Assembly: GCA_963810095.1 (NCBI GenBank)
Contig: CAWEMM010000012.1
Span: forward strand, 448,001 to 512,000
Direction: 5' to 3'
Origin: an uncultured Chloroflexia bacterium
Lineage (GTDB): Bacteria; Chloroflexota; Anaerolineae; CG2-30-64-16
DNA: 64,000 bases
This document shows positions 13,963-64,000 of the stretch, in pieces; position 1 is the stretch's first letter, and every line of letters starts with the position of its first letter. The position numbers and the translations under genes were made by a program. The notes under the pieces were generated by a model. It saw nothing but the letters and a program-made list of their open reading frames with translations. It made no database searches and was not told the origin of the DNA.

Positions 13963-13964
13963 TA

Positions 13965-15245
13965 TTACTTGCGGTGGTGCAGGTTCGTCGCCGCGATCCA
14001 GCTCAGGCCGGCCTCCGTGAGGACGCGGGCCGTGCGATTCACCGACTCGTGCTTGTCCAGGTAGTTCTGGAGCAGTACGTCCATCTCGTGCGCATCCTCA
14101 ATCTCTTCCTTCTTGCGGAAGTAGTCGAGAATGCTTGACGAATGGGCCCGCGTCGCTTCCACGTCGGGGTCGCCACCCTCGTGCTTCGCCGAAATGTTGG
14201 GCACGTGGTCGGCCAGCTGAACCAACTCGTCGCGGCGGTTGTATGGCTGGATGACGATATGACGGTACGCCTCGGTGATGTGGTGCTCGAAGCGGACCAC
14301 CTGCTCGAACCCGAGCAGCTTGCGGAACTGCGCCGTGATCTCGAGGGTCTCGTTGTTAGCCGAGTTGCCCCAGTTGAAGCCGATCAGCGGCGAGGTGCCA
14401 TCGTCGCGCGAGAAGAGCTTCGCGGCCATCAGGGTCCACAACGCGGCGAACGGGTTGTCGTTCCCCACGAACACGCTGATCTTAAACTCGTTCTGGATGC
14501 CCAGCTTGTAGAGCAGGTAGCCCGCCAGAATGGTGCCCGGGTTGATGTTCAAGACCTGCCGAGTGCCGTAGGTGGTGTAGTAATAGAGGAACTCGTCCAC
14601 CCACATGAGCACGTGGTCGTTCGGCTGGCCCACGCCGCCAAAGTAGCCCGTAATCGTGTCTGGCCCGCCAAGGTGGATGTTCGAGCCGTCGGTGCCCTTC
14701 GTGTCGAGTGTTTCGACGTACGAAGCGCCCATGATCTGCATCGCAGCCGCGAGCGCCAGCATGTCGCCGCAGTCACCCTCCGATTCGCGCATCTTACGCA
14801 CGCGAATGTAGCGACCCGGCATCAACTCGCACTTCTCGATGGACTGTCGCGCTTCCGCAATCAGCCAGGGGAAATACTGGGTCGCGCTGATCTCCAGCGT
14901 AACGGCGAATTCATCCTTGAACGCTGTCGTCTCGGCCCGCTCGCCGAGCACCTGTTTCCGATATGCCGCCTCGGTGACGAAGGCGCCCGCGTCCCGCTGC
15001 TTTTGCAGCCAGATCAGGTCGTCCAGGTAGCAGCAATCGTGTTCGGCCAGCCGGGTCATCAGGTTGTCGAGGTCGCGCGCCTTGGCAGCCTTCGCGTTGA
15101 TTTCCTCCGGCGTGCCATACTTCGCCACGACGTCCAGCAGGTCGTTGATCACCCGCAGGTTCGGGTCCAGCAGCAGCGAGTTAAGGTCATCCAATCGTGC
15201 CTGAGGGATGCGCAGCCTCGCGCGTAGCTCGTCTCTGTTAGCCAC
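13965..15245 (-). CDS. Protein of unknown function (426 aa, enzyme-like), directly downstream of panB
   Basis: Long ORF with typical codon usage, GAGG RBS and GTG start; Gly/His/Asp-rich segment ETLDTKGTDGSNIHLGG..ITGYFGGVGQPN; no family recognised. Confidence 0.85.
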   Translation of the reverse strand: MANRDELRARLRIPQARLDDLNSLLLDPNLRVINDLLDVVAKYGTPEEINAKAAKARDLDNLMTRLAEHDCCYLDDLIWLQKQRDAGAFVTEAAYRKQVLGERAETTAFKDEFAVTLEISATQYFPWLIAEARQSIEKCELMPGRYIRVRKMRESEGDCGDMLALAAAMQIMGASYVETLDTKGTDGSNIHLGGPDTITGYFGGVGQPNDHVLMWVDEFLYYYTTYGTRQVLNINPGTILAGYLLYKLGIQNEFKISVFVGNDNPFAALWTLMAAKLFSRDDGTSPLIGFNWGNSANNETLEITAQFRKLLGFEQVVRFEHHITEAYRHIVIQPYNRRDELVQLADHVPNISAKHEGGDPDVEATRAHSSSILDYFRKKEEIEDAHEMDVLLQNYLDKHESVNRTARVLTEAGLSWIAATNLHHRK

Positions 15246-29233: not shown

Positions 29234-29238
29234 GCGCC

Positions 29239-44954: not shown

Positions 44955-45026
44955 CGCGGCGACTGCCACGAGTCAGACGAGTTGGACGATCGCCTTGCGG
45001 GTAAGCGGCGCGTCGGGCCAATTCGG

Positions 45027-46290: not shown

Positions 46291-46405
46291 GAGACAATTC
46301 CAGGCAAAAAAACTCCCGGCCAACACCGCCGGGGCACCAGTATTATAGCACGCCTGGCGGCGGCCAACCAACTCAGATCTATCCGACCATTGGCTCTTGC
46401 TGGAG

Positions 46406-49486: not shown

Positions 49487-50323
49487 GTGCCTGATGGACA
49501 ACCGGCCACCCATTCTGCTTCCCAGCCACAGGAAGTCGCGCCCGCGGTCTACTGTCTGGAAGTCGGCAACGGGATGATGCGCTCGAATGTGTTCTTCGTG
49601 CGCTCCGGTGGGGCGTGGGTCTTGATCGATACGGGATCGGCCGGGTGCGACGGCGTAATCGGGCAGGCGGTCGCGTCCCTGTTCGGGACAGATACGCCAC
49701 CGGCGGCCATCCTGCTCACCCACGACCACCCCGACCATGCGGGTTCGGCGTTGGCATTGACCAGACGGTGGGGCTGCCCCGTGTATGTCCACCCGGACGA
49801 GCTGGCGCTCGTCACCATGGTCCCTGAAAACTACCTGGCGACCGTCAACCAGTATGCCAACCCGCTCGACCGCTGGGTCATCCTCCCGATCCTTCGCCTG
49901 CTTCCCGAGCGCAGGCGAGCGGCGATGCTGGCCGAGTCGAGTTTCAGGGACGCCGCGGCGGTGCTGGACCTCTACGGACCCGTCCCGCACCTTCCGGGCT
50001 GGACCTGCATTTCCACCCCGGGTCATACGCCGGGCCATGTTTCCTTCTTCCGCCCCGCGGACCGCGTCCTGATCACGGGTGATGCGGTCTTGACCATTCA
50101 GCTGAATTCCTTGTGGCGTTTCTTGCTGTCCGCTCTTGGGCGGGATAAGCGGGGAGTCTCGGGACCTCCGCGCCTCACCACTTGGGATTTGCGGGCCGCT
50201 CAGAAGTCGGTTGTCGCACTCGCAGGGCTTGAGCCTGACGTACTGGCATCCGGCCACGGGCTCCCTATGTGTGGCGGTGGGACCTCGGCTGCGTTGCAGG
50301 CTTTCGCAGACCGTTTTCGGTAG
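49487..50323 (+). CDS. MBL-fold metallo-hydrolase
   Basis: LIDTG, THDHPDH, TPGHTPGH, GDA, GHG. Confidence 0.9.
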   Translation: MPDGQPATHSASQPQEVAPAVYCLEVGNGMMRSNVFFVRSGGAWVLIDTGSAGCDGVIGQAVASLFGTDTPPAAILLTHDHPDHAGSALALTRRWGCPVYVHPDELALVTMVPENYLATVNQYANPLDRWVILPILRLLPERRRAAMLAESSFRDAAAVLDLYGPVPHLPGWTCISTPGHTPGHVSFFRPADRVLITGDAVLTIQLNSLWRFLLSALGRDKRGVSGPPRLTTWDLRAAQKSVVALAGLEPDVLASGHGLPMCGGGTSAALQAFADRFR

Positions 50324-50506: not shown

Positions 50507-51381
50507 TCAGCCGGCGGCCGCAGCCGCGGCCTTCGCCTTCTCCCGCTTCCTGAAATCCTTGATCCACTTGCGGCCGTACTCGTCATGACCGAGGAAGAGG
50601 TCCGCGGCGAGGACGGCGGTGTGCACTGCGGGTTCGAGGGGGTTCGTGATCGCCGAATTCAGCCCTGCATGCATCGCCATCGCAATAAAGGCCGCATTGA
50701 GCGACGGGCGGTCGGGCAGGCCGAACGAGACGTTGCTGGCCCCGGCCGTGAGGTTCACGCCCAGCTCCGCACGCAGCAACTGCATGGTTGCGAGCGTTAC
50801 GGCGCCCGCGTTCGAGTCGGCCCCGACGGTCATCACGAGGGGATCGAAGACAAGGTCCTCGATCGGGACGCCGTGATCCGCGGCGCGGGCGACGATCTTG
50901 CCGCGATCTCGAGCCGGGCGTACGGGTCCTGGATCGGACCGCGCTCGTCGTTGCACAGCGCGATCACGGCCGCGCCGTACTTCTTGGCCAGGGGCAGCAC
51001 GCGCTCCAGCGCCGCTTCCTCGCCCGTGGTCGAATTGATCAGCGCCTTGCCACTGTAGATCGCAAGCCCCGCGGCCAGCGCATCCGGGTTCGCCGAGTCG
51101 AACGAAATCGGTACGTCGGCACAGTCGATCACCATTAGCGCGGCCTGCCGCATGATCGCCGGCTCATCACCGCCCGGCACACCTGCATTGACGTCGAGCA
51201 CGGCGGCGCCCGCTTCGATCTGAGCCAGCGCGTCGGACTGGACGCGCGAAAAATCCCCGTTTGCCAGCTCCTCCGCCAGCTTCTTGCGCCCCGTCGGGTT
51301 GATGCGCTCGCCAATGATCACGAACGGATTCTCCGGGCTGATCACCACGGTCTTGGTCTTCGACGATAGTACGGTTTCCAT
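50507..51381 (-). CDS. Methyltetrahydrofolate:corrinoid methyltransferase (pterin-binding, AcsE/MtgA-like); frameshift near 50900
   Basis: IIGERINPTGRK, LDVNAG, SFDS, INS, FDPLV, GASNVSFGLPDR, AITNP. Confidence 0.9.
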
Positions 51382-51424
51382 GTGTTGCAACTCCCTGGGA
51401 GATATGCTGATTGGCAGGCTCGGC

Positions 51425-52861
51425 TTATGCCTGTACGGGTTGGGCCGTTGCTTCGGCCAGTATCGCTTCGAGGACAGTCTGCACCCCCGCCGGCAAGGCG
51501 GGCGGCTGGTGCCTGGCGAGAATGCGGCGGAGCTTGTCGTCGACGCGCTGGCTGGTATCCCGCGCGCCCGCCTGCTCCCATACGGCGTGCTGGTTTCGGT
51601 CGAGCACGGTGGGCATCCACACTTCGCGGCGTGACACGCCGACCGACTCCGGCTCTTCCAGGAAGTGCCCGCCCGGCCCCACCTTCTCGATCAGGTCCAG
51701 CATCACCGCGGCGCGGCTGACCTCGATCCCGCGGCCGATGCGCCGGGCCATGCCCACGATCTCGTCGACCAGCACCAGCATCGGCAGCGAGCCGATATCG
51801 GCGCAGTCGAGAAATCCGCCGTCGTGGACGAGCGCCGCGCCGCTCAACTGGGACATGAGGATCTGCAGTGCTGCCTCCACGCCGGCTTGCGCGTCGAGCA
51901 GCTTGCTCTCCGACGCGCCGGCCGTGCCCATGAAGGGCAAGCCCAGAAAGCGCGCCAGGTCTGCCGCGGCCGCCGAGTGCAGCGAAGCCTCAGGCGAGCC
52001 GTACGACGGCCGGGCCGTGCGCAGGTCCATCGGCGAGGGCAGGCCGCCGATCGCCGCGGCCGCGCCGGGCCGGGCCAGTTGAATCACCGCCAGCCCACTG
52101 AGCGCCGCCGCCTGGTGCAGCACCAGGGCAGATGCCCCACTGAACGGCGATTCGATTCCAACGGTGGGGCCGCCGAGGTAAACGACCGGAATGCCGTGCC
52201 GCGCCGCCCACATCACGTTGGCAAGATCTTCGTCCGTGTGCCGCAGGGGTGAGGGATAGGTGGAGAAGAGCGCGAAAATCGGCCGGGCAGCCAACACCTC
52301 TTCGTTCCCCGCCACGGCAACGGCCATGCGGTGCATTGCAGCAACGTTCGAGGGGTCGTGGGCCCATCCGACGATCGGCTTGCCGGTGTTCGCGATCAGC
52401 TCAGCAAACTCGTAGACCGCCGCCTGATCGGACCGCGGGATGTCCTGGATGAGCCCCAGGCCCATCACGTAGTCGATGTTCGGCAGGGCATCGGCCACCC
52501 GTGCGGCCAGGGCCGGGTCACCGCGGCGCGAAGGCCGGCGCTCGCCTGTCTCGGGGTCGACGAAGTAGGTGGTCGTCAGGCCGGGCCCGAAGTGGCTGGG
52601 TCCGTCCGCCGACACCCGCATCGGCCGGTCGCCGCTGCGCCCCCAAACGGTAAACGAGCGGGGGGTCGAACCAATTGCCGCCCGAATCACGGGGGCCGGG
52701 ATCCGGACGCGTACGCCGTCGACCCGCGCGCCGGCGCCCGCCAACAGATCGCGCGCCTCTGCGTTCGCCACGTCCACGCCGATGCGCTCCAGGCATTCCA
52801 GGGACGCAGCGGTGAGCTCCCGGCACTGTTCGTCTGACAAAACACGCAACGATAAGGTCAT
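51425..52861 (-). CDS. Trimethylamine methyltransferase (MttB) family protein, non-pyrrolysine
   Basis: LE.IGV.V, SPL, SYGSPE, GLPFMGTAGASESKLLDAQAG.E, VHDGGFLD, VGPGGHFL; no in-frame TAG. Confidence 0.9.
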   Translation of the reverse strand: MTLSLRVLSDEQCRELTAASLECLERIGVDVANAEARDLLAGAGARVDGVRVRIPAPVIRAAIGSTPRSFTVWGRSGDRPMRVSADGPSHFGPGLTTTYFVDPETGERRPSRRGDPALAARVADALPNIDYVMGLGLIQDIPRSDQAAVYEFAELIANTGKPIVGWAHDPSNVAAMHRMAVAVAGNEEVLAARPIFALFSTYPSPLRHTDEDLANVMWAARHGIPVVYLGGPTVGIESPFSGASALVLHQAAALSGLAVIQLARPGAAAAIGGLPSPMDLRTARPSYGSPEASLHSAAAADLARFLGLPFMGTAGASESKLLDAQAGVEAALQILMSQLSGAALVHDGGFLDCADIGSLPMLVLVDEIVGMARRIGRGIEVSRAAVMLDLIEKVGPGGHFLEEPESVGVSRREVWMPTVLDRNQHAVWEQAGARDTSQRVDDKLRRILARHQPPALPAGVQTVLEAILAEATAQPVQA

Positions 52862-53050
52862 GTCTGCACCCGTGGTTCACTGTTTACAGGAAGTCGCGAA
52901 GGCACCAAGTTTCGCGAAGATCGGCCGTCCTCCACAAGCCCGGGAAGAGGTGCGGACCGAGGCGGAAATTTTCCCCCCACAATGAAAGCAGGCCGCGCTT
53001 GGTGAAGCTTCGCGTTCTTTGATCCTTCCTGTGAAGGGAATGCCCCTCGC

Positions 53051-54217
53051 TTACACCCGCGCAACCGCGTCCGCGATGCGATCGAGCGCCTCGCGGATGT
53101 TGTCCATCGAGCTGGCGAAGACCAGCCGCAGATAGCCTTCGCCGTAGCTTCCGAAGGCCGTGCCCGGCAGAACGGCCACGCCTGCTTGCTCCAGCAGGAA
53201 ATCAGCCCACCAGGCGGACGTCTTGCCGTACGACGACACGTTGGGGAACACGTAGAATGCACCCTGGGGCGAGCGGCAGCGCCAGCCCGGGATTTTGTTC
53301 AAGCCGGCGACGAGCACGTCACGGCGGCGCTGGTATTCGGCCACCACCGCATCGACCTCTTCCTGCGGGCCGGTTAGCGCCTCGATGCCGGCAACCTGGG
53401 TGAAGCTCGCCGTGCAACCGACCGAGTGCGTCATCAGCAGTTCGACGCGCTCTGCCAGGGCCTCGGGCATGATGCCATAGCCAAGCCGCCAGCCGGTCAT
53501 CGCGTAAGTCTTCGAGAAGCCGTCGCAGATAATGGTCCGCTCCTGCATGCCCGGCAGGGCCGCGATGGTCGGCACCTCGCAGCCGTCGAAGGCGAGACGC
53601 ATGTAAATCTCGTCGGAGAGGACCCAAATGTCGCGCTCGATCGCGACCTGTGCGATGTGCTGCAGGGCGGCCGTCGACATCACCCCACCCGTCGGGTTGC
53701 TCGGCGAGTTGAGGATGATCATGCGCGTCTTGTCGGACACGAGCCGGTCAAACGCAGCCAGGTCGAACGAGAAATCCTGCTCTTCCACCAGCGGCACGGG
53801 CACCGCCTTGCCCCCCGCCACGCCGATCATCGCCGAGTAGGTTGGGAAGCCCGGGTCAGGATAGATGACCTCGTCGCCCGGCCGCACCAGCGCCAACGTG
53901 GGGAAGAAGAGCGCGGGCTTCGCGCCCGGTCCCACAACCACCTGCGCAGGGTTGAAGGCAACGCCCCGGCGCTTGCTAGCATCCTCGGCGATGGCCTCGC
54001 GGAGTGCGGGCATGCCGGCCGAAGGGGTATAGCGGGTGAAGTTATCCTCGATGGCCCGCACGCCGGCCGCCTTTACGTTGCCAAAGGTCGGCACGTCGGG
54101 CTGGCCGATCTCGAGGTGGACGATGTGCTTGCCCTGCGCTTCCAGTGCATTGGCACGGGCCAGCATGAAGTACGCGCCCTCGGGCGCAAGATGGTTGACG
54201 CGGTCGGCAAAGGTCAT
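53051..54217 (-). CDS. Class I/II PLP aminotransferase (aspartate aminotransferase-like)
   Basis: IGQPD, NSPSNPTG, SDEIY, FSKTYAMTGWRLG, GAFY, YLRL. Confidence 0.95.
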   Translation of the reverse strand: MTFADRVNHLAPEGAYFMLARANALEAQGKHIVHLEIGQPDVPTFGNVKAAGVRAIEDNFTRYTPSAGMPALREAIAEDASKRRGVAFNPAQVVVGPGAKPALFFPTLALVRPGDEVIYPDPGFPTYSAMIGVAGGKAVPVPLVEEQDFSFDLAAFDRLVSDKTRMIILNSPSNPTGGVMSTAALQHIAQVAIERDIWVLSDEIYMRLAFDGCEVPTIAALPGMQERTIICDGFSKTYAMTGWRLGYGIMPEALAERVELLMTHSVGCTASFTQVAGIEALTGPQEEVDAVVAEYQRRRDVLVAGLNKIPGWRCRSPQGAFYVFPNVSSYGKTSAWWADFLLEQAGVAVLPGTAFGSYGEGYLRLVFASSMDNIREALDRIADAVARV

Positions 54218-54239
54218 GGTCGCTCCAACTGGAATCTCT

Positions 54240-54301
54240 CAACACAAAGACACGAAGGCACAAGGGCTGAGACGCTTTGTGTCCTTGTGTCCTTGTGGTA
54301 A
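54240..54301. repeat. Family A palindromic repeat
   Basis: caacacaaagacacgaaggcacaag ... ctttgtgtccttgtgtccttgtggta. Confidence 0.85.
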
Positions 54302-54305
54302 ACCG

Positions 54306-55109
54306 TTACGCATGGCCGTAGTAGTCACGATGGACGGCCACGGAATAAGCGTAGTCGAGCAAGGTGCCCCAGGAGAAGACGGCGATGTCGATCTGTTCGA
54401 GGGCGAGCTCACGCTGCAGGGCCCGCGCGAAGGGCGGAAAGCCAGTACATTCTAGCACCAGCGCGCCCATTTGCGGGTATTGCCGGACGAACGCCGAAGC
54501 AACCGCCACAAACTCGCGTTCGGCCTTCTGGTAATCGGCCGCGGGTGGGTCGGTGCGAAGTCCCCCCGTCCACAGGTGATCGAACTCCTCGCACTCGAAG
54601 CGTGCCATCGCGTCGCCGATCACGTAATTCGAACCTAACTGAACCCCAACCGCGGCCAGATGGCGCTCGGTCAGGTAGGTCGCGTTCGCCATTAGGATGC
54701 CGACGACGCGCTCGGGGCCGATGAGTTGCTGGGCGAAGGGCACCTGAAGCAGCGAGGACATGAATACGGGCACGCGCACCGCCGCCGCCACCTCACGCTG
54801 AAAGTAGGCGAAGTAACCGCACTCACCCGCGATAGCCCGGCACCCCATCCGCTCGAGCCGCCGGGCGGACGCCAGGAGCGGCTCGAGGCAGGGCGACTTA
54901 TCCTCCTCTACCACGAGGCAGCGGATGTCCACGCCCTCGGCCACGTCATATTGGATGGGAAAGGGGTACGCGCTCGCATTCCGCACGTCGCCGGGGAAGC
55001 CGGGATAGACGTCGTCGAGAATGATGACACCCAGGCCCATGCCGTATACGCGGCGGTCGGGCCGCGCGTGGATGGCGCGCAAGTCGGGGTCGTGAGGAAG
55101 AGTTTGCAT
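54306..55109 (-). CDS. Asp/Glu/hydantoin racemase-superfamily protein, Alma1 (DMSP lyase)-like subgroup
   Basis: GVIILD..YP..PGDV.N...YPFP, AIAGECGYF, SSLLQVP, LVLECTGFPPF; both catalytic Cys present. Confidence 0.8.
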   Translation of the reverse strand: MQTLPHDPDLRAIHARPDRRVYGMGLGVIILDDVYPGFPGDVRNASAYPFPIQYDVAEGVDIRCLVVEEDKSPCLEPLLASARRLERMGCRAIAGECGYFAYFQREVAAAVRVPVFMSSLLQVPFAQQLIGPERVVGILMANATYLTERHLAAVGVQLGSNYVIGDAMARFECEEFDHLWTGGLRTDPPAADYQKAEREFVAVASAFVRQYPQMGALVLECTGFPPFARALQRELALEQIDIAVFSWGTLLDYAYSVAVHRDYYGHA

Positions 55110-55135
55110 GGTAGCCTAAATGGATCGTGGCCGTT

Positions 55136-55298
55136 TGGAAGGGGAAAGGCGGAACGAACAAAATGGGCGAAAGGCGACACGCGAAGGGCACGCTAGTCCC
55201 GGTGCCCATTGTCGTGCTCGGGCAGGACCGGCGTCCGGAGTTCCGCCGTTTCGTGTTTCGTCTTTCGCGTTTTTCCAGCCTTTCGCCTTCCCCTTCCA
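55136..55298. repeat. Long degenerate family A-type inverted repeat
   Basis: tggaaggggaaaggc ... gcctttcgccttccccttcca with internal cgaa/ttcg units. Confidence 0.65.
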
Positions 55299-55326
55299 GA
55301 TGACGCAGCCGCTTCGCTTCCCGCGC

Positions 55327-56571
55327 CTACGCCTTCGCCAGCGCCTGCTCCAGGTCGGCCACGACGTCTTCGACATCCTCCAGCCCCACCGACATGCGGA
55401 TCAGGCCGTCGTCGATGCCCGCCCGGTCGCGCTCATCCTGGGTCAAGTGCTCGTGCGTGATGGTGCGGGGGTGCATGACGATCGTGCGGCTGGTGCCAAA
55501 GGTCACCGCGTGGATGATCAGCTTGAAGCTGTCCATGACCGTGCGGACCGCGGGAATGCCGCCCTTCACGACGAACGAAAGCATGCCGCCGCCCGCCTTC
55601 ATCTGGCGCTGTGCCAGCGCGTACTGCGGGTGCGCCGGCAGGCCCGTGTAATTCACGCGGCTGATCTTCGGATGAGACTGCAGGTACTCGGCCAGCGCGT
55701 GGGCGTTGCTGCTGTGCTTCGCCATGCGCAGGGGCAGCGTTTCGAGGTACTGGACCGTGAGCCACGAGTCGAAGGGTTGCATCGTGCAGCCGACGAACTC
55801 GGTCGTGTTCCAGCGAATATCTTCGGTTAGCGACTCGGGCCCGACGATCGCGCCGCCCAGCACCGTCGCATTGCCGGCCAGAAACTTGGTGATCGACAGC
55901 AAGACGATGTCGGCGCCGAACGCCAACGGCTTCTGCAGTGCGGCCGTCGCGGTCGTGTTATCGACCATCATCGGGACGCCGCGACTGTGGGCCACGTCTG
56001 CCACTGCCTGCAGGTCGGTGACAAAAAGCGTCGGGTTGGATGGGGTCTCGACCCAGACCAATTTCGTGCGACTGTCGATCGCCGCGTCCCAACACTTGGG
56101 ATCCTCGGGGTCCAACACCCAACGGAACTGCACGCCGCAGCGTTCGGGGAATATGGTCGCCGCTTGCTTGTAGCCCTCGCCGAACGTCATCAGGGACGTC
56201 ACGATGTTGTCGCCGGGCCGGCAGATGGTGAAGAGCAGGTTGAAGAGCGCTTGCGAGCCGGACCCGGCCGTCACGCACGCCTCGCCGCCCTCGAGCACCG
56301 CCAATCGTTCCTCCAGCACCGAGGTCGTCGGCGTCTTGGTGCGCCCGTAGACCGGGTAGGGAATCTTGTCGAATTGCTCATATGGGAACGTCATCGACGG
56401 GACGATGGGGAGGCTGAAGGTGTTGAAGCGCCCCATGCCGGTAATCGGGCGGAACCCCGCATGGAGCGCCTGGGTAGCAAAGCCCAGGTCGTCGTCAGGT
56501 CGCGGCTGTCGCTGGCAGTCCGGATCATACGCCCAGGGCCGGCGCATGAAGAACATTTCGTCGTGTTGCAT
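55327..56571 (-). CDS. Cys/Met metabolism PLP enzyme (methionine gamma-lyase/cystathionine gamma-synthase family), divergent
   Basis: FATQALHAG, YGR...PT...LEERLA.LEGG, ETPSNP, VDNT, SITKFLAG, LIRMSVGLED. Confidence 0.9.
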   Translation of the reverse strand: MQHDEMFFMRRPWAYDPDCQRQPRPDDDLGFATQALHAGFRPITGMGRFNTFSLPIVPSMTFPYEQFDKIPYPVYGRTKTPTTSVLEERLAVLEGGEACVTAGSGSQALFNLLFTICRPGDNIVTSLMTFGEGYKQAATIFPERCGVQFRWVLDPEDPKCWDAAIDSRTKLVWVETPSNPTLFVTDLQAVADVAHSRGVPMMVDNTTATAALQKPLAFGADIVLLSITKFLAGNATVLGGAIVGPESLTEDIRWNTTEFVGCTMQPFDSWLTVQYLETLPLRMAKHSSNAHALAEYLQSHPKISRVNYTGLPAHPQYALAQRQMKAGGGMLSFVVKGGIPAVRTVMDSFKLIIHAVTFGTSRTIVMHPRTITHEHLTQDERDRAGIDDGLIRMSVGLEDVEDVVADLEQALAKA

Positions 56572-56592
56572 GAAGGATTCCTCATTATGTTG

Positions 56593-56640
56593 GAAACCTG
56601 GTTTCTGCGCCAGCGACGCTGGCGGTTGAAACCAGGTTTC
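56593..56640. repeat. Family C repeat doublet
   Basis: gaaacctggtttc and gaaaccaggtttc flank an inner hairpin cgccagcg-a-cgctggcg. Confidence 0.75.
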
Positions 56641-56645
56641 TCGGG

Positions 56646-58688
56646 TTACGGTTTGAGGTTACAGAGCTCTTCTTCGGATAAGTGGCACACGATCTTGTGC
56701 CCGTTGCCCATGTCGCGCGTCGGGGGTTCTTCGATATTGCACGTACCCTCGATTATGAAGGGGCAGCGCGTGTGGAACCGGCAGCCCTGCGGCGGGTTGA
56801 CTGCGCTGGGCACGTTCCCCGTCAGGCGAATGGTCTTCTGCTCGATCGTCGGATCGGGACGCGGGACGGCGGCCAGGAGCGCGGCCGTGTACGGGTGGTT
56901 CGGGGGCGAGTAGATCGCTTCACACGGCCCGATCTCGACGATGCGGCCCAGGTACATCACCGCGACGTCGTCCGAGAAGAAGCGCACCGCACTCAGGTCG
57001 TGCGAGATCAGGATCATCGCGGTGTCGTGCTGCTGCTGAATCTCCACCAGCACGTTGAGCACCGCCGCCTGCACCGACACGTCGAGCGCCGACACCGGCT
57101 CGTCGCAAACCACCATCGCCGGGTTGCTGGCGATGGCGCGCGCGATGCCGACGCGCTGCTTCTCGCCGCCCGACATCTGACGCGGAAGGCGGGCGTAGTA
57201 GTCCTCGTTCAGCTTGACCGCCCGCAGCAGGCGCACGACCTCGCCGTAGACCTCGTTCGATGGCACAGTGCGAAAGCGCTTGAGCGACACCGCGATCTGG
57301 TCGCCCACGGAGTAAGACGGGTTGAGCGTGCCGTTCGGGTCCTGGAAGACCATCTGCAGTTCGCGGATGGTGGCCAGGCTGCGCTTGTTGATTGGCTTCG
57401 TCACGTCAATACCGAGGAAATCGATCTTGCCCTCGCGCAGCGGCTCGAGGCCGACAATGCTGCGTGCCAACGTGCTCTTGCCGCAGCCCGACTCGCCCAC
57501 GATGCCAAGCGTGCGGCCGCGCTGGATCGTCACGCTGACACCGTCGACCGCCTTCACGTATCGACGCTTCTCCAGCCCGAACAGCCCCTTCAACGTCTTG
57601 TACGGCACGGGGTAGTGGGTCTTGACCTCGTGCGCGTCGAGCACGATAGGCGGCGCCTCGCGCTCGAACGTGGGCGGCTGGCCGTGTCGGGCCTCCAGGC
57701 CCATCGGGTACCACTTGTCGGCCAAGGAGCACCGGACGAGATGGCCCGGCCCGATTTCCATCAGCTTCGGGTGGCTGGCGTCGCACGCCTCGCTGCGGTG
57801 TTCGCATCGGGGCGCGAAGATGCAGCCCCCGGGGATCTGGTCGGGCTTGGGTACCCGGCCGGGGATGGGCGAGAGGATGCGCGTGCCCCGCGGTGCGTCC
57901 ACGTCGGGCAAGCAGCGCATCAGGCCGCGGGTGTAGGGGTGCGTCGGCCGGGCATAGATCTCGCGCGTCGGCGCGTACTCGACCACTTCGCCCGCATACA
58001 TCACCGCGACCTTGTCGGACACACGGGCGACGACGCCAAGATTGTGGCTGATATAGAGCGTTGCCGTGTGATACCGCTCTTTGAGCTCGGCGATCAGGTC
58101 CAGCACCGCCGCCTCGACGGTGACGTCCAGTGCGGTGGTCGGCTCGTCCATGATCAGCAGCGCGGGGTTGTTCAGCATGGCCATCGCGATCAGCACGCGC
58201 TGCTGCTGTCCGCCCGATAGCTGGAACGAGTAGCGCTTCATCACGCCCTCCACGTCGGGCATGTAGACCCGGCGCAGGGCTTCCTCGCACTCCTTGTACG
58301 CCGCCTCTTTCTTCAGGCCGCGGTGGATGATCAGCGACTCGGCCAGCTGATCGCGAATCATCATGCTCGGATTCAGCGCGGACATCGGCTCCTGGTAGAC
58401 CATGGCGATGTCGGCCCCGCGCAGCTTTCGCAGTTCTTCCTCAGTGCGCCCGCGCAGCTCCTGGCCCTTGAAAAGGATCTGGCCGTTCGACACGCTGCCG
58501 TTGGGGCCCAGGAAGTTGACGATCGAGAAGGCCACCGTGCTCTTGCCGCAGCCCGATTCGCCCACCAGGCCCAGGTTCTCCCCCTGGCAGATGTCGAACG
58601 TCACGTCGCGCACCGCGTCGACATGGCCCTTGCGGGTCTTGTAGCTGACCGCCAAGTTCTGGACGGACAGGACAGGGCCTTCGGTCAT
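56646..58688 (-). CDS. Peptide/nickel ABC transporter ATPase, fused DppD-DppF type
   Basis: Two GESGCGKST Walker A motifs, two SGG signatures, two HPYT...GC.F..RC C-terminal domains. Confidence 0.95.
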   Translation of the reverse strand: MTEGPVLSVQNLAVSYKTRKGHVDAVRDVTFDICQGENLGLVGESGCGKSTVAFSIVNFLGPNGSVSNGQILFKGQELRGRTEEELRKLRGADIAMVYQEPMSALNPSMMIRDQLAESLIIHRGLKKEAAYKECEEALRRVYMPDVEGVMKRYSFQLSGGQQQRVLIAMAMLNNPALLIMDEPTTALDVTVEAAVLDLIAELKERYHTATLYISHNLGVVARVSDKVAVMYAGEVVEYAPTREIYARPTHPYTRGLMRCLPDVDAPRGTRILSPIPGRVPKPDQIPGGCIFAPRCEHRSEACDASHPKLMEIGPGHLVRCSLADKWYPMGLEARHGQPPTFEREAPPIVLDAHEVKTHYPVPYKTLKGLFGLEKRRYVKAVDGVSVTIQRGRTLGIVGESGCGKSTLARSIVGLEPLREGKIDFLGIDVTKPINKRSLATIRELQMVFQDPNGTLNPSYSVGDQIAVSLKRFRTVPSNEVYGEVVRLLRAVKLNEDYYARLPRQMSGGEKQRVGIARAIASNPAMVVCDEPVSALDVSVQAAVLNVLVEIQQQHDTAMILISHDLSAVRFFSDDVAVMYLGRIVEIGPCEAIYSPPNHPYTAALLAAVPRPDPTIEQKTIRLTGNVPSAVNPPQGCRFHTRCPFIIEGTCNIEEPPTRDMGNGHKIVCHLSEEELCNLKP

Positions 58689-58830
58689 ACGTGCCTCATC
58701 CGATAAGTTCGCAAACAACGAGCGAAAGGTCGAACAGGAAGAACCGACGAAACCAAGCTCCACAAAGGGATTGCCGTTAGGCTTTGCGTGCCTCCGGTTC
58801 CTTGGTTCCTCCTGTGATCGATCGCACCCG

Positions 58831-59709
58831 TCATTGATATCGCATCGTTTCTTCGCGCAGGCCGTCGGCGAAGAGGTTGAGCCCGATCACCAGCGAGACG
58901 ATCGCTGCGGTGGCAGCCAACACGGGCCACGGGTTCGTGATCATGCGCGCGTGGCCTTCCTGCACCATCCCGCCCCAGTCGGGCCGGGGCGGCGGCAGAC
59001 CAAGCCCCAGGAAGCCGAGTGTGCCGATATAGAACGCCGCATACCCCACGCGCAACAGGAAGTCGACGATCAACGGTCCCCGGCAGTTCGGCAGGATCTC
59101 CCGAAACATAATGCGAGCAGCCGAGTCCCCGCGTAGCTTGGCCGCGGCCACGTACTCCCTCGTGCGGTTGTCCAGCGTCAGCGCGCGCACAAGGCGCGCG
59201 ATGCCCGGCGCGCCGCCGATCGCGATCGCGATCACCACGTTGACGGGACTCGCGCCCAGCGCCGAAATGATGATCATGTAGAGCAGGATCGTCGGAAAGG
59301 CCATGAACGCATCGAGGATACGCATGATGAACTCGTCGAGCCACCCCCCATAATAAGCCGCGGGGAGCCCGAGCGCCATGCCGATGAGGAACGCCACCGC
59401 GACCGACAAGGGGCCGAGCAGGAGGATCGTGCGTGCGCCATACGCGATGCGCGACCACACGTCGCGGCCGAGGTGGTCTGTGCCCAGGAAGTGCTGCCCG
59501 GAAGGGCCCTGATCCAGCGCCTTGTAGTCCTGGTCCTTGGTCGGATCGAAATGAGTGAACAGGGGTGCGCCGATCGCGACTACGACCCAGAACAGGACGA
59601 TGACCAGGCCCACGACCGCAACGCGCGACGACAGGATCACGCGCATGTTGTCGGCAAAGCGCTGCCAGCGGCGCGGCGCCACGATTACGGTTTGTGCTGC
59701 TGCGGTCAT
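58831..59709 (-). CDS. Peptide ABC transporter permease (DppC-like)
   Basis: LGTDHLGRDVWSRI.YGAR, EYV.AA, ILPN, LGFLGLG..PP.PDWG. Confidence 0.94.
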   Translation of the reverse strand: MTAAAQTVIVAPRRWQRFADNMRVILSSRVAVVGLVIVLFWVVVAIGAPLFTHFDPTKDQDYKALDQGPSGQHFLGTDHLGRDVWSRIAYGARTILLLGPLSVAVAFLIGMALGLPAAYYGGWLDEFIMRILDAFMAFPTILLYMIIISALGASPVNVVIAIAIGGAPGIARLVRALTLDNRTREYVAAAKLRGDSAARIMFREILPNCRGPLIVDFLLRVGYAAFYIGTLGFLGLGLPPPRPDWGGMVQEGHARMITNPWPVLAATAAIVSLVIGLNLFADGLREETMRYQ

Positions 59710-59810
59710 GCGCGTCCTCCGAGAGCGTTCACGACAAGGCCACAACGACAGCGGGGACACGCAGCTGCACCAACTTCTCCGTGCCCTTGTGCCCTTGTGT
59801 CGAAAAAGCG

Positions 59811-61121
59811 CTACGAGTACCGAATGCGCGGGTTCAGGTACGAGTAAATGATGTCGGCAATGAGCTGCGACACCACGGCGATCACGATCAGCACCATCGC
59901 GCCGGCTTCGATGGCAAAAACGTCCTTGTAGAGCGCGGCGTTCAGGATGAAGTTGCCGAGCCCGGGAAAGCCGAAGACGGCCTCGACGACGACCAGGCCG
60001 CCGATAAGCCAGTTGACATGCAGCATGATGACCGTCACCGGCGCCATCAGCGAGTTCCGCAGGACGTGGCCGAGCACCATCTTGCGGCGCGGCATACCCT
60101 TGAGAATGGCCGTGCGGACGTAGGCGGCGCCCATCACTTCGAGCACGCTCGCCCGTGTGATGCGCAGGATATAGCCCACTTCGACCAGGCTTGCAGTCAG
60201 CACCGGCAAGATGAGCATGTTGGGCTTTGACAAGACGCTGCCCGCATCCGTGTAGACGGTGGCCCCCGGCAGAACCTTGAGCCACATCGAGAAGATCATC
60301 ACCAGGAAGATGCCGGCGGCGAAGTCAGGCGTGGCTGCGGTGACGAGCCCGCCCAGGGTCAGGACGCGGTCGATCTTGTTGCCGCCGTTGAGGCCGGCGA
60401 TCAGGCCCAGGAGCACGCCGAGAGGGATGGCGACCAGGAAAGCCAGCATAGCCAGCGTCAACGAGTTGGCGATGCGCCTGCCGATCACGTCGGCCACGGG
60501 ACGCTTATACTGGAGCGATAGTCCCATGTCCCCGCGGATCAGGCCCTTGCTGAGGGGGATGTAGTCTACGGGCGAGCCGGCCGTTTCGATCCAGCCGGAG
60601 TATTCCAGCCGGTACTCGACGCCGCCCTGCCCCTTCACCCACTTGGCGATGCGATTGCCGGTGTCCACGCCCCAGAAGTACTGCTCGCCGTTCGGTCCTT
60701 CTCTCCAAGCCCCGTTGTCGGGCGTCTCGGTCGTCGAGCCGTCGGGCTGGCGGATCATCTTCACCAGGTCCTGGCCCGCGATCTTCCACTGCACCAGGTT
60801 GCCCTGCGCGTCGACCGCCCACCACTGGCGATAGCGCGCCTGCGTCCCCTGCTCCACCACGATTTCCCGCACCGGCATCCCCATCGTGCGGCGCGCCTGC
60901 CAGTCGCTCCCGAAGAGCCAGTTGACGTAGCGCGCCACGACCGACCGGTCGAGCCCAAGCTGGTTCCGCATGGATTCCTCTTGCTCGGGCGTGGCGTACG
61001 CGCCGAGGATATTCCGCGCGACGTTGCCCGGTGCGATCTCCACGACGCCAAACACGACGATGGAGACGAGGAGCATCGTCAGGATCAGGGTGATCATGCG
61101 GCGGAGGATGTATAGGGCCAT
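59811..61121 (-). CDS. Peptide ABC transporter permease (DppB-like) with a large extracytoplasmic insertion
   Basis: YILRR, LGLD, GDMG.S, YVRTA..KG, HVLRNS, VE.VF.FPG.G, YLNPRIR. Confidence 0.92.
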   Translation of the reverse strand: MALYILRRMITLILTMLLVSIVVFGVVEIAPGNVARNILGAYATPEQEESMRNQLGLDRSVVARYVNWLFGSDWQARRTMGMPVREIVVEQGTQARYRQWWAVDAQGNLVQWKIAGQDLVKMIRQPDGSTTETPDNGAWREGPNGEQYFWGVDTGNRIAKWVKGQGGVEYRLEYSGWIETAGSPVDYIPLSKGLIRGDMGLSLQYKRPVADVIGRRIANSLTLAMLAFLVAIPLGVLLGLIAGLNGGNKIDRVLTLGGLVTAATPDFAAGIFLVMIFSMWLKVLPGATVYTDAGSVLSKPNMLILPVLTASLVEVGYILRITRASVLEVMGAAYVRTAILKGMPRRKMVLGHVLRNSLMAPVTVIMLHVNWLIGGLVVVEAVFGFPGLGNFILNAALYKDVFAIEAGAMVLIVIAVVSQLIADIIYSYLNPRIRYS

Positions 61122-61135
61122 ACGATCACTTTCTC

Positions 61136-61174
61136 ATCTTATCAGGCCGGCGCGCTGCGCCGGCCTGATAAGAT
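61136..61174. terminator. 18-bp perfect stem-loop between mttB and the permease gene
   Basis: atcttatcaggccggcgc-gct-gcgccggcctgataagat. Confidence 0.65.
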
Positions 61175-62623
61175 CACTGCTTATTGATCCACTCCTGCTC
61201 GCGCTCGACGATCCGGCGGATTTCCTGCTGGACGTCGACGGGGAGCGGGTCGGCCTTGTGCTTCGCGAGGATGGTGTCCACCTGCTTCGTGGCGCGGGCC
61301 TCCATCGTGGTCGAGCCCTTCTTCTGCCAGACGGCGAAGGGGCTCTTGTCGGCCAGCTTGGAGTAGAACGGCTCGCGATAATGGCGAATGGTGTGCTCGT
61401 GCTCGAGATAGCTTCCCGTGGGGCCAAGCTCGTCGATCACGTCCAGGGCTAGTGTTTCGTCGTTTACGACGACACCCGCGGTCATTGCACGGATGAAGCC
61501 CAGGTAATCGTTGCACAGGGCGATCTGCTGGAGCGAGCCCTGCATCCCTGCATCCATGAAGCCGACGTCGTGCACGATGTTAGCGCCGTGGAGCAGCGCG
61601 GTCATCAGGCTGATCGTCGCCTCGAACCCGGCCTGCTGGTCCAGGGCCTTGGAGTCTGTGGAGCCGCCCAAGCCAAACACAGGCAGGTCGTAGTACTTGC
61701 CCATGCTGGTCGGCACGCCCTGCTCGTCGGCCAGCACGTAGTTGCCGACCATCGTTTGCAGGTTATAGGGCCCGCCGTTCCAGCCGGGCACGCCGACAGG
61801 GGTGCCCTCGCGCACGAGTTGGGCCAGCACGATGCCGAGCAGGATGCCGGCGTTCATCGACGCCATGCAGCCGGCAGTCGTGACGGGTGAGTTCACGCCG
61901 CCTGCGTTGAGGGGAATCCACAGCAGCGGAAGCCCCTTCTCTGCCAGGAACATGCACTTCTGCAGCGCCTCGGCATTCATGATCAGGCCGGACGTGACAT
62001 TGATGTAACAGGTGGCGAACGGCCGGCGCCGGAAGGCTTCTGCGCCGCCCGCGACTGCTTCGCACATCTCCACCGCCGCCACGCAGCCCTCGAAGTCAGG
62101 GGTCACGAACACGATCGGCTTGGTCGTGTTGTTCAGCATGACCTCCATCTGGTAGCGGTCGTAGATGCGCTGGTCGACGTCTTCGGGCAGCACGGCCGAC
62201 ATGACAAAGTCGATCTCGGGCAGCGCGTCCATCAAGGTCGCGGCCTCGCAGACGTCGTCGAGAACCGGCCTGCGGCGCAAGCCCGTGTGGCGGTCGAGGA
62301 TGTTGAGGCAGTCTGATCCGCCGCCGTAGTAAGTGTTGTAGCCGCCCGCCCGCATCGCAACCTGGCCCTTGCGGTTGTACAGGTTCATGCGGTGTGGGAC
62401 CACGGAAAGCGCACGGCTGACCATAAACTCGGGGATGCGCACACGAATGCCGTCCGCTCGCCGCGCCGCCCTTCACAAGCAACTGCAGGGCTTTCTCGTC
62501 ATGGACGTCGAGGCCAACCCGGTTGAGGATCTCGAGCGATGCAAGGTGAATCTCCTCGCACTCCCGCTTTCCCATGCGCGCGTAGTGCGCGCTGCCCATA
62601 TTCGTCTGATGAGTTGTGATCAT
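61174..62623 (-). CDS. Second MttB-family methyltransferase, non-pyrrolysine; frameshift near 62460
   Basis: IH.ASLEIL..VG in ORF 62096-62623, continuing into NTTKP, SPVT.AG, LPVFGLGGSTDSKALDQQAGFE, VHDVGFMD, LGPTGSYL. Confidence 0.88.
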
Positions 62624-62653
62624 GTGAGTCCCGATTCAACTGATAACAACCTA

Positions 62654-62740
62654 ACCACAAAGACACGAAGTACACGAAGGTTCACAAAGCCGGTTCCGGC
62701 TGTCCTTTGTGAACCTTCGTGCCTTTGAGGCTTCGTGGTA
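62654..62740. repeat. Family A palindromic repeat
   Basis: accacaaagacacgaagtacacgaaggttcacaaag ... ctttgtgaaccttcgtgcctttgaggcttcgtggt. Confidence 0.88.
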
Positions 62741-62742
62741 GG

Positions 62743-64000
62743 CTACGCCTTAGGCTCTTTCCACGCCTGGTGGAGCATGCAGTACTCTTCGGGCGACTCG
62801 AGGACGCCCTTGATGTTCTTCTGGTAGATCTGCCAGACGTTCATGAAGAACGGGGTGCAGATCGAGCCGCGATCCTTCTGGATTTCCTCCAGCTTGGCGA
62901 CGAGCGCCTTGCGCTTGTCGAGGTCCAGCGTGCCCGTGGCCTCCGTCAGGATCTTGGAGAACTCGTCGTCTACCCAGCGGGTCTCGTTCCACGGCACGGG
63001 CTTCCCGTCCTTGTCCGCGGTGTACGCCTGCGGGAGCAGCATTGTGGCCAGCGGCCGGTGCGCCCACCAGGTAATTCCCGTGTTGAACTCGGTCCAGCCA
63101 TCCCAGTACTGGTTCGAGGGCATCGGCTTGAGGGTGATGTCGAACCCACCGGCGGCCGCATCTTCCTTCAGCGCCTGGGCGTAGGCCATCGACTCGGGCC
63201 AGTCGGATGCGACGTTGATCTCGACCTTCACCGGGGTGGTCACGCCGGCTTCCTTCAGCAGAGCCATCGACTTCGCGGTGTCAAACGGGAACGGCTCGAG
63301 GGGCACGTACTCGCCCTGGGCAGGCGCCACGTGGCTGTCGTTCCCGATCACGCCCTGGTTGCGCAGCGCCAGCGCCAGGATCTTCTCCCGGTTGTGGCAG
63401 TGCTTGAGCGCCTGGCGCACCTTGTTATCTTTCCACGGGTCCTGGTCCACGCGAACGCGGAGCGTGCGGGTGGCCGCGGTGGGGGTGGAGATAATGGTGA
63501 ACGCGGGATCGTCCTTCACGCCTTCCCACACGGTCACCGGCGGCTCGACGATCATCTCGACCTGGCCGGACTTCAGCGCAGTCTGCCACGCCGCGGGGTC
63601 GTCACCCAGCTGCACGAAGACGATCTCGTCGAGATAGGGCAGCGGGTTGCCGTCCTCGCCCATGCGCCAGTAACCCTCGCGCTTGGTCAGGCGGCAGCGC
63701 TCGCCCGGCACGTATTCCTTCATGTTGAACGCGCCCGTGCCCACGGGCTTGAGCGTGATGTCGCCCTCGAACGTCTTGGGCACGATCGCGGCCGGGTACT
63801 GGAAGAGGTGCTCGGGCACGTAGATGGTGGGGTCGGTGCAGTTAAGCCTGACGGTGTAATCGTCGACCTTCTCGACGCCGGTGGGCGGCAGGTAGCTCAT
63901 GAGGCCCAGCAGCGAAGAACCCACGTCCTTGTTGAGCCACTGGCCGAAGTTGAAGATGACGTCGTCCGCATTGAACTCCTGGCCATCGCTGAACTTGATG
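62743..64000 (-). CDS. Family 5 (peptide/nickel) ABC substrate-binding protein; 5' end outside the window
   Basis: KFSDGQEFNADDVIFNF at the window edge, PVGTGAF, YW, PYLD, VRQAL. Confidence 0.92.
   Translation of the reverse strand, partial: IKFSDGQEFNADDVIFNFGQWLNKDVGSSLLGLMSYLPPTGVEKVDDYTVRLNCTDPTIYVPEHLFQYPAAIVPKTFEGDITLKPVGTGAFNMKEYVPGERCRLTKREGYWRMGEDGNPLPYLDEIVFVQLGDDPAAWQTALKSGQVEMIVEPPVTVWEGVKDDPAFTIISTPTAATRTLRVRVDQDPWKDNKVRQALKHCHNREKILALALRNQGVIGNDSHVAPAQGEYVPLEPFPFDTAKSMALLKEAGVTTPVKVEINVASDWPESMAYAQALKEDAAAGGFDITLKPMPSNQYWDGWTEFNTGITWWAHRPLATMLLPQAYTADKDGKPVPWNETRWVDDEFSKILTEATGTLDLDKRKALVAKLEEIQKDRGSICTPFFMNVWQIYQKNIKGVLESPEEYCMLHQAWKEPKA

Follow-up and report, generated by a model that had tools for sequence, protein, structure and literature searches.

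What compound is served by a run of ten genes in which two methyltransferases of the MttB superfamily stand together with a peptide-type importer and several enzymes of the amino-acid type? The question is raised by positions 50507-64000 of a stretch of 64,000 nucleotides (here, the window) of contig CAWEMM010000012.1 from an uncultured Chloroflexia bacterium. The run is read here as a conserved catabolic cluster of the Anaerolineae (Chloroflexota) that handles an imported methylated amino-acid-like compound, a general model held with slightly better than even confidence. The gene identities, the synteny, the active-site changes and the corrinoid accessories of relatives are observations, from which we infer the catalytic steps and the substrate. 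In the model, the compound would be taken up by an ATP-binding cassette (ABC) importer of the Dpp/Opp type; the two deeply diverged MttBs, as first methyltransferases (MT1), would transfer methyl to the Co(I) of a corrinoid protein encoded elsewhere in the genome; and a pterin-binding enzyme, as second methyltransferase (MT2), would pass the methyl on to tetrahydrofolate (THF). A variant of a pyridoxal phosphate (PLP) lyase would carry out gamma-elimination to 2-oxobutyrate and ammonia, a racemase-fold enzyme would deprotonate the carbon next to the carboxylate, most likely epimerising the substrate or a product for the next enzyme, and an aminotransferase would perform the final deamination, for which relatives would use a dehydratase with RidA, or Tdh and Kbl, instead. 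In the order of transcription, the ten genes are:

62743..64000, minus strand: SBP5, the family-5 solute-binding protein (SBP) of a Dpp/Opp-type ABC importer (PF00496, E 4e-65), with its 5' end beyond the window.
61174..62623, minus strand: mttB-1, for a non-pyrrolysine MttB-superfamily methyltransferase, with a +1-base frameshift near 62460 (PF06253, E 9e-69 for 61174-62442).
59811..61121, minus strand: a DppB/OppB-type permease of 436 aa (PF19300 at residues 1-71, PF00528 at 235-434).
58831..59709, minus strand: a DppC/OppC-type permease with a probable ATG at 59709 (PF00528, PF12911).
56646..58763, minus strand: a fused DppD-DppF ATPase of 705 aa, with an alternative start at 58688 (ABC_tran twice, oligo_HPY twice; NCBIfam dipeptide/oligopeptide ATPase models).
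55327..56571, minus strand: a Cys/Met-family PLP enzyme related to methionine gamma-lyase, the lyase variant (PF01053 Cys_Met_Meta_PP, E 3e-114).
54306..55109, minus strand: a PRK07475 racemase-fold protein (PF01177 Asp_Glu_race; NCBIfam PRK07475).
53051..54217, minus strand: a class I/II PLP aminotransferase (PF00155 Aminotran_1_2, E 3e-72).
51425..52861, minus strand: mttB-2, for a non-pyrrolysine MttB-superfamily methyltransferase, intact (PF06253, E 5e-79).
50507..51390, minus strand: a pterin-binding methyl-corrinoid:THF methyltransferase with a -1-base frameshift near 50901/50902 (PF00809, NCBIfam PRK07535).

All ten assignments are backed by both Pfam and NCBIfam, the aminotransferase reaching no NCBIfam equivalog cut-off. 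An initial annotation, made from the letters of the sequence, had named the same ten gene types in the same order and direction, which these models bear out; the strand, unstated there, is minus, so that transcription runs from 64000 to 50507, across intergenic gaps of 34-217 nt and at a G+C of about 64%. Because a scan for promoter-like and terminator-like signals gave counts not above those of shuffled sequences (0 vs 1.8 expected and 7 vs 7.7 expected, respectively), the operon structure is deduced from spacing and synteny only.

The synteny was assessed by a scan of species-representative genomes with the racemase-fold protein, which gave 427 relatives, and the counts use the best 80 loci (numbered L001 onwards), of which 67 belong to Anaerolineae or other Chloroflexota, nine to Desulfobacterales, 'delta proteobacterium' or Thermodesulfobacteriota, and one to Spirochaetia, the rest being of other lineages; gene presence was scored by tblastn with the window proteins. 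An MttB gene lies at most 3 kb from the racemase-fold gene in 68/80 loci. Among the 66 loci with at least 3 kb of downstream sequence, 46 have such a gene on the same strand, starting at most 1.6 kb downstream, and 45 have an MttB-2 ortholog (at least 50% identity) anywhere in the locus. Where at least 9.9 kb of upstream sequence was available (45 loci), the lyase variant was found in 31, an MttB-1 ortholog in 32 and the fused ATPase in 26. The cluster genes are thus co-conserved, a point on which the initial annotation had made its proposal depend, and the arrangement, being syntenic across dozens of independent genomes, is far beyond chance. The 12 loci that have no nearby MttB include L003, L023, L033, L041 and L046, where the contig ends less than 2 kb past the racemase-fold gene, and L080, where it ends 1.3 kb past it; L017, L018, L030, L051, L055 and L078 have ample flank and no adjacent MttB.

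The core of the cluster is modular, with MttB-1, the transporter and the lyase as one unit and MttB-2 with the racemase-fold enzyme as the other. MttB-1 keeps with the SBP, the permeases and the lyase, and stands directly before the lyase at loci where the transporter is divergent or absent (L005, L008, L009, L011, L012, L022, L028 and L042), and MttB-2 keeps with the racemase-fold gene. The second unit recurs in the seven loci of the Desulfobacterales type (L049, L057, L058, L061 and L064-L066), in which an MttB gene is directly upstream of the racemase-fold gene, its product being 47-51% identical to MttB-2 and the racemase-fold protein 67-68% identical to that of the window. The exact window order of lyase, racemase-fold enzyme, aminotransferase, MttB-2 and pterin methyltransferase is shared, among the 80 loci, by L001 only, an Anaerolineae metagenome-assembled genome that is the nearest relative (76-92% protein identity across the cluster). 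In L001 (11470-12763), a gene of the major facilitator superfamily (MFS) and a DUF3105 gene follow directly after the pterin methyltransferase; their window equivalents are at 44352-46371, a rhamnosidase (46616-49477) and a hydrolase of the metallo-beta-lactamase fold (49487-50323) being inserted between them and the pterin methyltransferase. On the other flank, a GntR/FCD regulator is divergent upstream of the cluster in 11 loci, and one probably lies just beyond the end of the window.

To our knowledge, few members of the MttB superfamily have known substrates, all of these being quaternary amines or trimethylamine. The two window proteins are only 29.7% identical to each other. Both belong to the superfamily, the match covering profile positions 31-494 of 500 for MttB-2 and 79-496 for MttB-1, and both fall short of TIGR02369, the model of the pyrrolysine trimethylamine methyltransferase, with scores of 337 (MttB-2) and 318.5 (MttB-1) vs a cut-off of 525; apart from the mttB-1 frameshift, both reading frames run without an internal stop, and hence without the in-frame UAG that pyrrolysine would need. 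The best match among solved structures in the Protein Data Bank (PDB) is MtgB of Desulfitobacterium hafniense for MttB-2 (E 6e-56) and an entry named trimethylamine methyltransferase for MttB-1 (E 2e-43). A tblastn search of plasmids with MttB-1 returned only two records, at 28% identity, and hence no cultured close relative.

The glycine betaine site of MtgB is formed by Y97, R312, H348 and F356 according to PMC13080624. These residues were mapped with the chain index equal to the number in the paper minus 2, and for MttB-1 indirectly, via its alignment to MttB-2. At the four positions MttB-2 has L, M, H and A, so that only His348 is kept. In an alignment of 130 MttB sequences taken from the window and the loci, the MttB-2 orthogroup (53 sequences) has P or L, M, H and A, and the MttB-1 orthogroup has S, F, H and G in 45/45 sequences; Y, R, H and M stand there in four MttB sequences of Desulfobacterales loci, and the MttB upstream of the racemase-fold gene in the Desulfobacterales-type loci has the P/M/H/A pattern of the MttB-2 orthogroup. 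By this four-residue comparison of sequences, with the site as far as it is described in that source, neither MttB is a glycine betaine enzyme, and a different methyl donor is likely for both because neither keeps the glycine betaine site.

It may be asked whether the cluster performs no more than an ordinary demethylation of quaternary amines of the betaine, choline or carnitine type, the PLP and racemase-fold genes being mere neighbours with a general use in amino-acid or peptide metabolism. The characterised non-pyrrolysine MttB members, as listed in PMC12478193, all act on quaternary amines, and this explanation would agree with them, with MtgB as the best solved relative of MttB-2 and with a transporter of the peptide type. 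However, each MttB keeps only one of the four substrate residues of MtgB, with the carboxylate-binding Arg absent from both; across two phyla, and also where the gene order is rearranged, the pairs MttB/lyase and MttB/racemase stay tightly co-conserved; and MttB-1 lies within the transporter operon. An ordinary quaternary-amine pathway is accordingly an unlikely account of the cluster, and a methyl donor of another kind is preferred.

As for the acceptor side of the methyl transfer, the nearest known system in kind is MtgB/MtgC/MtgA, the glycine betaine:THF methyltransferase system of D. hafniense, which is accompanied by an activase of the RamA/RACo type. It has in common with the present cluster a non-pyrrolysine MT1 of the MttB superfamily and a pterin-binding MT2, and the corrinoid protein and the activase are found in the relatives of the window. 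It differs in that the window cluster has two MttB paralogs, an ABC importer, the lyase variant and the racemase-fold enzyme, the last three of which the Mtg system lacks, and in that the corrinoid protein is not encoded in the window. Of the three-component system, two MT1 genes and one pterin-binding MT2 gene (frameshifted) are thus present here. Among relatives, a corrinoid protein occurs in 10 loci, DUF1638 in 19 and a ferredoxin-RACo-type activase in five, DUF1638 and the activase being located after MttB-2 or the pterin methyltransferase. The corrinoid protein gene stands right after MttB-2 in L036 and beside the pterin methyltransferase in L028, is also found in L005, L042 and L075, and follows the operon in five Desulfobacterales loci.

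DUF1638 and a RamA-like protein were linked by mutant fitness to the B12 reactivation of a split methionine synthase, according to PMC5764234, and in Eubacterium many MttB paralogs are served by one shared corrinoid protein, according to PMC12478193. Since relatives carry the corrinoid protein, DUF1638 and RACo, and since the corrinoid protein is shared in Eubacterium, the predicted B12-dependent methyl transfer is the well-supported part of the model. The scheme of the initial annotation, in which methyl would pass from MttB to a corrinoid protein and on to THF, gains support from the same genes adjoining MttB-2 or the pterin methyltransferase in relatives, which is the usual composition of MttB-type systems that deliver methyl to THF. 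One corrinoid protein shared by many MttBs would also explain the missing corrinoid gene here, and in this respect the cluster resembles MtpB, MtcB, MtyB and MthB of E. limosum, several substrate-specific MT1s that feed one corrinoid protein encoded elsewhere (PMC12478193). These paralogs differ from the present case in that their substrates, quaternary amines, have no free amino group in the alpha position, and no PLP lyases or racemase-fold genes are described from their loci. In the window itself, an importer of cobalt of the energy-coupling factor type, with CbiM(-PDGLE), CbiQ and an ABC ATPase (CbiO), is encoded at 28265-30870 on the plus strand, which fits a corrinoid-using organism.

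A hint at what the substrate may be comes from the lyase variant. Its best matches are methionine gamma-lyases (Citrobacter freundii 2rfv, E 5e-92), and it falls under every NCBIfam equivalog cut-off, with a score of 338 vs 549.7 for TIGR01328 and 338 vs 666 for PRK07503. With the methionine gamma-lyases of C. freundii (2rfv) and Pseudomonas putida it shares the fold and the length, and in comparison with 2rfv the PLP Lys (in SITKF), the PLP-binding Asp, Tyr58/Arg60 and the C-terminal carboxylate-binding Arg are all kept. It differs in the active-site loop, where YGC (Tyr113, Cys115) has become FGE, with Phe for Tyr113 and Glu for Cys115, and after the Lys, where GHGD has become GNAT. These changes are fixed in the orthologs (65-88% identity), which have FGEGYKQA and GN[AG][TS] in 45/45 sequences, while the paralogs at the same loci (34-37% identity) keep the Tyr and G[HQ][GS]D in 6/6. 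As judged from these alignments, the lyase variant is a distinct subfamily in which Tyr is replaced by Phe and Cys by Glu. In methionine gamma-lyase, Tyr113 is, as we take it, the general acid for the leaving thiolate, and Cys115 is presumably specific to that enzyme and lines the S-methyl pocket. The Phe/Glu pair would suit a leaving group that is cationic when bound and neutral on departure, such as the dimethylsulfonium of S-methylmethionine, or ammonium. A cationic (onium) substituent at the gamma position would therefore fit, because the lyase has lost the Tyr that protonates the thiolate and gained a Glu. As a best single guess, the substrate would be an alpha-amino acid whose gamma position carries a cationic methyl-onium group, S-methyl-L-methionine being the prime candidate; that the substrate is indeed S-methylmethionine or a similar gamma-onium amino acid is a possibility to which we give rather little credence.

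The racemase-fold protein belongs to PRK07475, with 252.1 bits vs a cut-off of 231 over profile positions 5-245 of 246, and it is unusually conserved, at 67-90% identity across Anaerolineae and Desulfobacterales. The search with it gave 2041 hits at E<=1e-10 among 6183 candidates, the best 120 of which are 71-90% identical. Two Cys are invariant in the 17 aligned sequences (the window protein and 16 relatives), namely Cys97 in ECGYF and Cys221 in ECTGFPPF. A model of the protein by AlphaFold2 (AF2; pLDDT 81) matches Asp racemase, arylmalonate decarboxylase and Glu racemase at template-modelling (TM) scores of 0.5-0.6. A profile search against PDB chains found no close solved relative and no Alma1 structure, reaching E values of only 0.23 and 0.76 (Glu and Asp racemase), and in the ESM Atlas the protein matches only generic 'aspartate/glutamate racemase family' clusters. 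Against plasmids, tblastn returned 106 records, all below 60% identity and in unrelated contexts. One of these regions, on plasmid1 of Planktothrix agardhii NIES-204 (L081; AP017992.1, 62905-63690), has a 58%-identical homolog in a biosynthetic-looking cluster with no MttB, and its neighbours include a glycine amidinotransferase, an O-methyltransferase, a P450 and sterol-desaturase-like proteins. A homolog in Leisingera lies in a cluster with a tripartite (TRAP) transporter, a flavin adenine dinucleotide (FAD) oxidase and a class V aminotransferase. PRK07475 is probably a family of general enzymes acting on the alpha-proton of carboxylates, recruited here to the cluster.

The same protein raises the possibility of a dimethylsulfoniopropionate (DMSP) pathway, in which it would be a lyase of the type of the algal Alma1, releasing dimethyl sulfide (DMS) and acrylate, with an MttB demethylating DMSP or DMS. 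The shared Asp/Glu racemase fold and the two invariant catalytic Cys speak for this possibility, as does the occurrence of the same MttB/racemase pair in Desulfobacterales, marine members of which demethylate DMSP with THF as acceptor. Moreover, PRK07475 is the bacterial subfamily closest to Alma1 and its eukaryotic homologs according to PMC10349084. The same paper reports the bacterial PRK07475 homologs as devoid of DMSP-lyase activity and describes the Alma1-type homologs as needing either DCGF or NCGF, together with either ECTE or ECTQ, around the Cys. The window protein has the racemase domain and both canonical Cys, but the contexts of the latter are ECGYF and ECTGF in 17/17 sequences, and thus depart from that published motif description (PMC10349084) at both Cys. 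In addition, DMSP has no amino group, which would leave RidA and the conserved PLP enzymes without a task, and the sources of the loci, as far as their titles hint at one, are inland (groundwater, lake, salar soil), with no marine site named in these titles. A DMSP pathway is thus highly improbable. The label 'Alma1-like' in the initial annotation stands as a statement about the family neighbourhood, through PRK07475, and falls as a functional one, given ECGY and ECTG in place of D/NCGF and ECTE/Q; the cleavage of DMSP, which had been one of its options, is not indicated, inasmuch as the Cys motifs fail and the subfamily is reported without lyase activity in PMC10349084. Instead, the amino-acid reading is retained.

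The amino-acid character of the pathway is seen in the lyase and aminotransferase of the window, and in the PALP, RidA, ornithine cyclodeaminase (OCD) family and Kbl/Tdh enzymes of relatives. PALP, a PLP enzyme of fold type II, is found between the lyase and the racemase-fold gene in 24/47 lyase-bearing loci and is closest, at 246-248 bits, to the models of threonine ammonia-lyase and the EutB dehydratase, whose cut-offs it does not reach. It is often joined by RidA and by a 424-aa protein that has no known family. The tblastn counts are 31 loci for PALP, 13 for RidA and four for the OCD/EutC-like cyclodeaminase. In Desulfobacterales, Kbl and Tdh are both present in five loci, and Kbl in six, those of L049 scoring 681 bits (Kbl) and 566 bits (Tdh), both above the cut-offs. 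Two threonine-degrading routes that are unrelated to each other, the dehydratase in Anaerolineae and Tdh/Kbl in Desulfobacterales, accompany the same MttB-2/racemase pair in the two phyla, which hints at a threonine-like product in that module. The operon at L049 (8503-17310) and L057 (8503-13909) consists of Lrp, Usp, MttB, the racemase-fold gene, Kbl, Tdh, the corrinoid protein and HisH/HisF-like genes, with inserts in L049 of DapF, an MtaA-like methyltransferase of the uroporphyrinogen decarboxylase (URO-D) family and a second MttB.

A partial likeness exists to EutA/EutB/EutC, the module of hydroxyectoine utilisation, in that relatives join a racemase-superfamily protein with a EutB-like PALP (246 bits) and, in four loci, a EutC-like cyclodeaminase, which reaches 421 bits against PRK08291, above its cut-off. 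The differences are that the window racemase-fold protein has no match to the EutA model at E<=0.001, that the PALP of the relatives is under the EutB cut-off, and that the window cluster has neither PALP nor OCD. In 17 related loci, the lyase and racemase-fold genes lie on either side of that for the 424-aa protein, and a protein similar to the latter is encoded in the window:

13965..15245, minus strand: a 426-aa protein, possibly an unlinked accessory gene, with 59% identity to the 424-aa cluster protein (tblastn and alignment).

This gene is about 36 kb from the cluster, and its neighbours (11541-16393) are a PanB hydroxymethyltransferase, an MFS transporter and a GHMP kinase. Neither Pfam nor NCBIfam gave a family for the 424-aa and 426-aa proteins, and for the former no PDB sequence match was found either. 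The AF2 model of the 426-aa protein (pLDDT 77, pTM 0.80) gives weak fold matches (TM about 0.3), mostly to TIM-barrel enzymes, the list being led by the alpha subunit of lysine 5,6-aminomutase, methylenetetrahydrofolate reductase and class II aldolases.

The importer is of the Dpp/Opp (PepT) type in its components, having SBP5, two BPD_transp_1 permeases and oligo_HPY-bearing ATPases in fused form. SBP orthologs of 63-71% identity stand first in the matching clusters of relatives. The SBP scores well under the cut-offs of all NCBIfam equivalogs (nickel, glutathione, dipeptide, opine), and a full-length ortholog (L014, 835-2532) has no close solved relative, its best PDB match being at E 8e-32. 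Solved structures were considered as a guide to the ligand and rejected as uninformative, the matches being a mixture of proteins that bind peptides, nickel, heme or opines. In the DppB-type permease, an insert about 120 aa long separates the N-terminal helix from the core; tblastn matches of the permease's orthologs extend over about 1.3 kb, nearly the whole of the 436-aa protein, and the insert appears to be conserved among them.

Such a transporter would also serve an island for the salvage of peptides or D-amino acids, in which the racemase-fold and PLP enzymes would process unusual or D-amino acids and the MttBs would N-demethylate residues such as trimethyllysine. The neighbourhood of the Leisingera homologs of PRK07475, with an FAD oxidoreductase and an aminotransferase, is in keeping with salvage, and so is the Spirochaetia locus L017, where the racemase-fold gene is accompanied by SBP5/Dpp genes and a class V aminotransferase, with no MttB. 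However, no peptidase is conserved in the cluster, and the lyase variant suggests a skeleton of gamma-substituted 2-aminobutyrate and not lysine. Salvage of this kind seems quite improbable to us, and the import of a methylated amino-acid-like compound is kept as the working model.

The state of the window copy needs to be considered apart from the function of the family. The mttB-1 gene is split over two frames (62096-62623 and 61174-62442) by one base extra in alignment with L001, its N-terminal 38 residues matching TIGR02369 in the other frame and the PF06253 match covering profile positions 79-496 of 500. The pterin methyltransferase is likewise split (50833-51390 and 50507-50956, with profile positions 1-141 and 142-265) by one base fewer than in L001, in which both genes are in a single frame. 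Programmed frameshifting was considered and rejected, as the breaks run in opposite directions, L001 has neither and there is no evident slippery motif at either site. Two further genes of the window are broken. The alpha-L-rhamnosidase at 46616-49477 (plus strand) extends over four overlapping frames, implying three frameshifts in one gene, with the domains Ig_Rha78A_N, Bac_rhamnosid_N, Bac_rhamnosid, 6H and C in separate open reading frames (ORFs), and a multicopper oxidase at 31665-33099 (plus strand) consists of two overlapping ORFs in different frames, with Cu-oxidase_3 followed by Cu-oxidase_2.

Should the frameshifts be real, this strain would have no working pathway, and the cluster would be a decaying remnant, dead in this genome. 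The single-base indels relative to L001 in two of ten genes would agree with decay, as would the breaks in the nearby rhamnosidase and the multicopper oxidase and the lack, in the window and in L001, of the PALP/RidA/424-aa block common in relatives. Yet no decay is seen past the breaks, where protein identity to L001 is 92% for mttB-1 and 85% for the pterin methyltransferase and third-position G+C is 0.88 and 0.81, and several frameshifts over 64 kb of otherwise intact genes resemble errors of the assembly consensus. Because further genes of the window are split as well and the parts past the breaks keep their identity and third-position G+C, the frameshifts are probably assembly errors, and a dead pathway, though conceivable, is doubtful.

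Several points weigh against the proposed pathway and have to be set beside the evidence for it. With respect to the methyl-transfer core, neither a B12-binding corrinoid protein nor a reductive activase was found in the 64-kb window by the Pfam scan (58 ORFs, comprising those of the cluster and 44 further ones) or by tblastn with two corrinoid proteins, and two of the ten cluster genes are frameshifted. With respect to the composition of the cluster, the aminotransferase occurs in only 12/80 loci and the pterin methyltransferase in 8/80, which makes them accessory and not core; in many relatives the lyase and racemase-fold genes are separated by PALP, RidA, the 424-aa protein or an enzyme of the OCD family; and the accessory set varies so much between loci that several related substrates are possible. 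The homologs of PRK07475 occur in other contexts too (the Planktothrix plasmid, Leisingera), and for none of the four, MttB-1, MttB-2, the lyase variant and the PRK07475 protein, did a characterised ortholog come to light. As to S-methylmethionine, the argument from Phe in place of Tyr to an onium group is drawn from the enzymology of methionine gamma-lyase, and this substrate would leave unexplained both the need for a racemase-fold enzyme and an importer of the peptide type instead of the amino-acid type; nor would it predict the tie of MttB-2 and the racemase-fold enzyme to threonine-type catabolism (PALP, Tdh/Kbl).

In the full-text literature on MttB, racemase, PRK07475, DMSP/S-methylmethionine, gamma-lyase and Anaerolineae topics, no description of this gene combination was found. 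The methyl-transfer core is already known in kind, being MtgBCA-like. What appears to be undescribed is the two MttB orthogroups, their fixed pairing with a Tyr-less gamma-lyase clade and with PRK07475, and their location within an operon for a peptide-type importer. In its boldest form, to which only a low probability is assigned, the proposal would amount to an undescribed B12 route for a sulfonium or other gamma-onium amino acid (e.g., S-methylmethionine) in anaerobic Chloroflexota and, for one module, in Desulfobacterales, with MttBs that would use a non-betaine onium donor, a Tyr-less gamma-lyase for a neutral leaving group (e.g., dimethyl sulfide) and a first physiological role for PRK07475.

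The Anaerolineae are common fermenters in digesters, sediments, soils and groundwater, and dozens of species-representative genomes from Anaerolineae and their Chloroflexota allies carry the cluster. As an orphan pathway it is clear, testable and widely conserved; the copy considered here is possibly damaged. A new substrate class tied to the breakdown of amino acids would, if the model is true, widen the B12-dependent methyl transfer in the anoxic cycling of carbon, nitrogen and possibly sulfur, and would give a testable function to two orphan groups, namely the PRK07475 relatives of the algal DMSP lyase and the Tyr-less clade of Cys/Met-family lyases. If the substrate should be a plant sulfonium compound, the pathway would also matter for where volatile methyl-sulfur compounds arise and are consumed in anoxic habitats.

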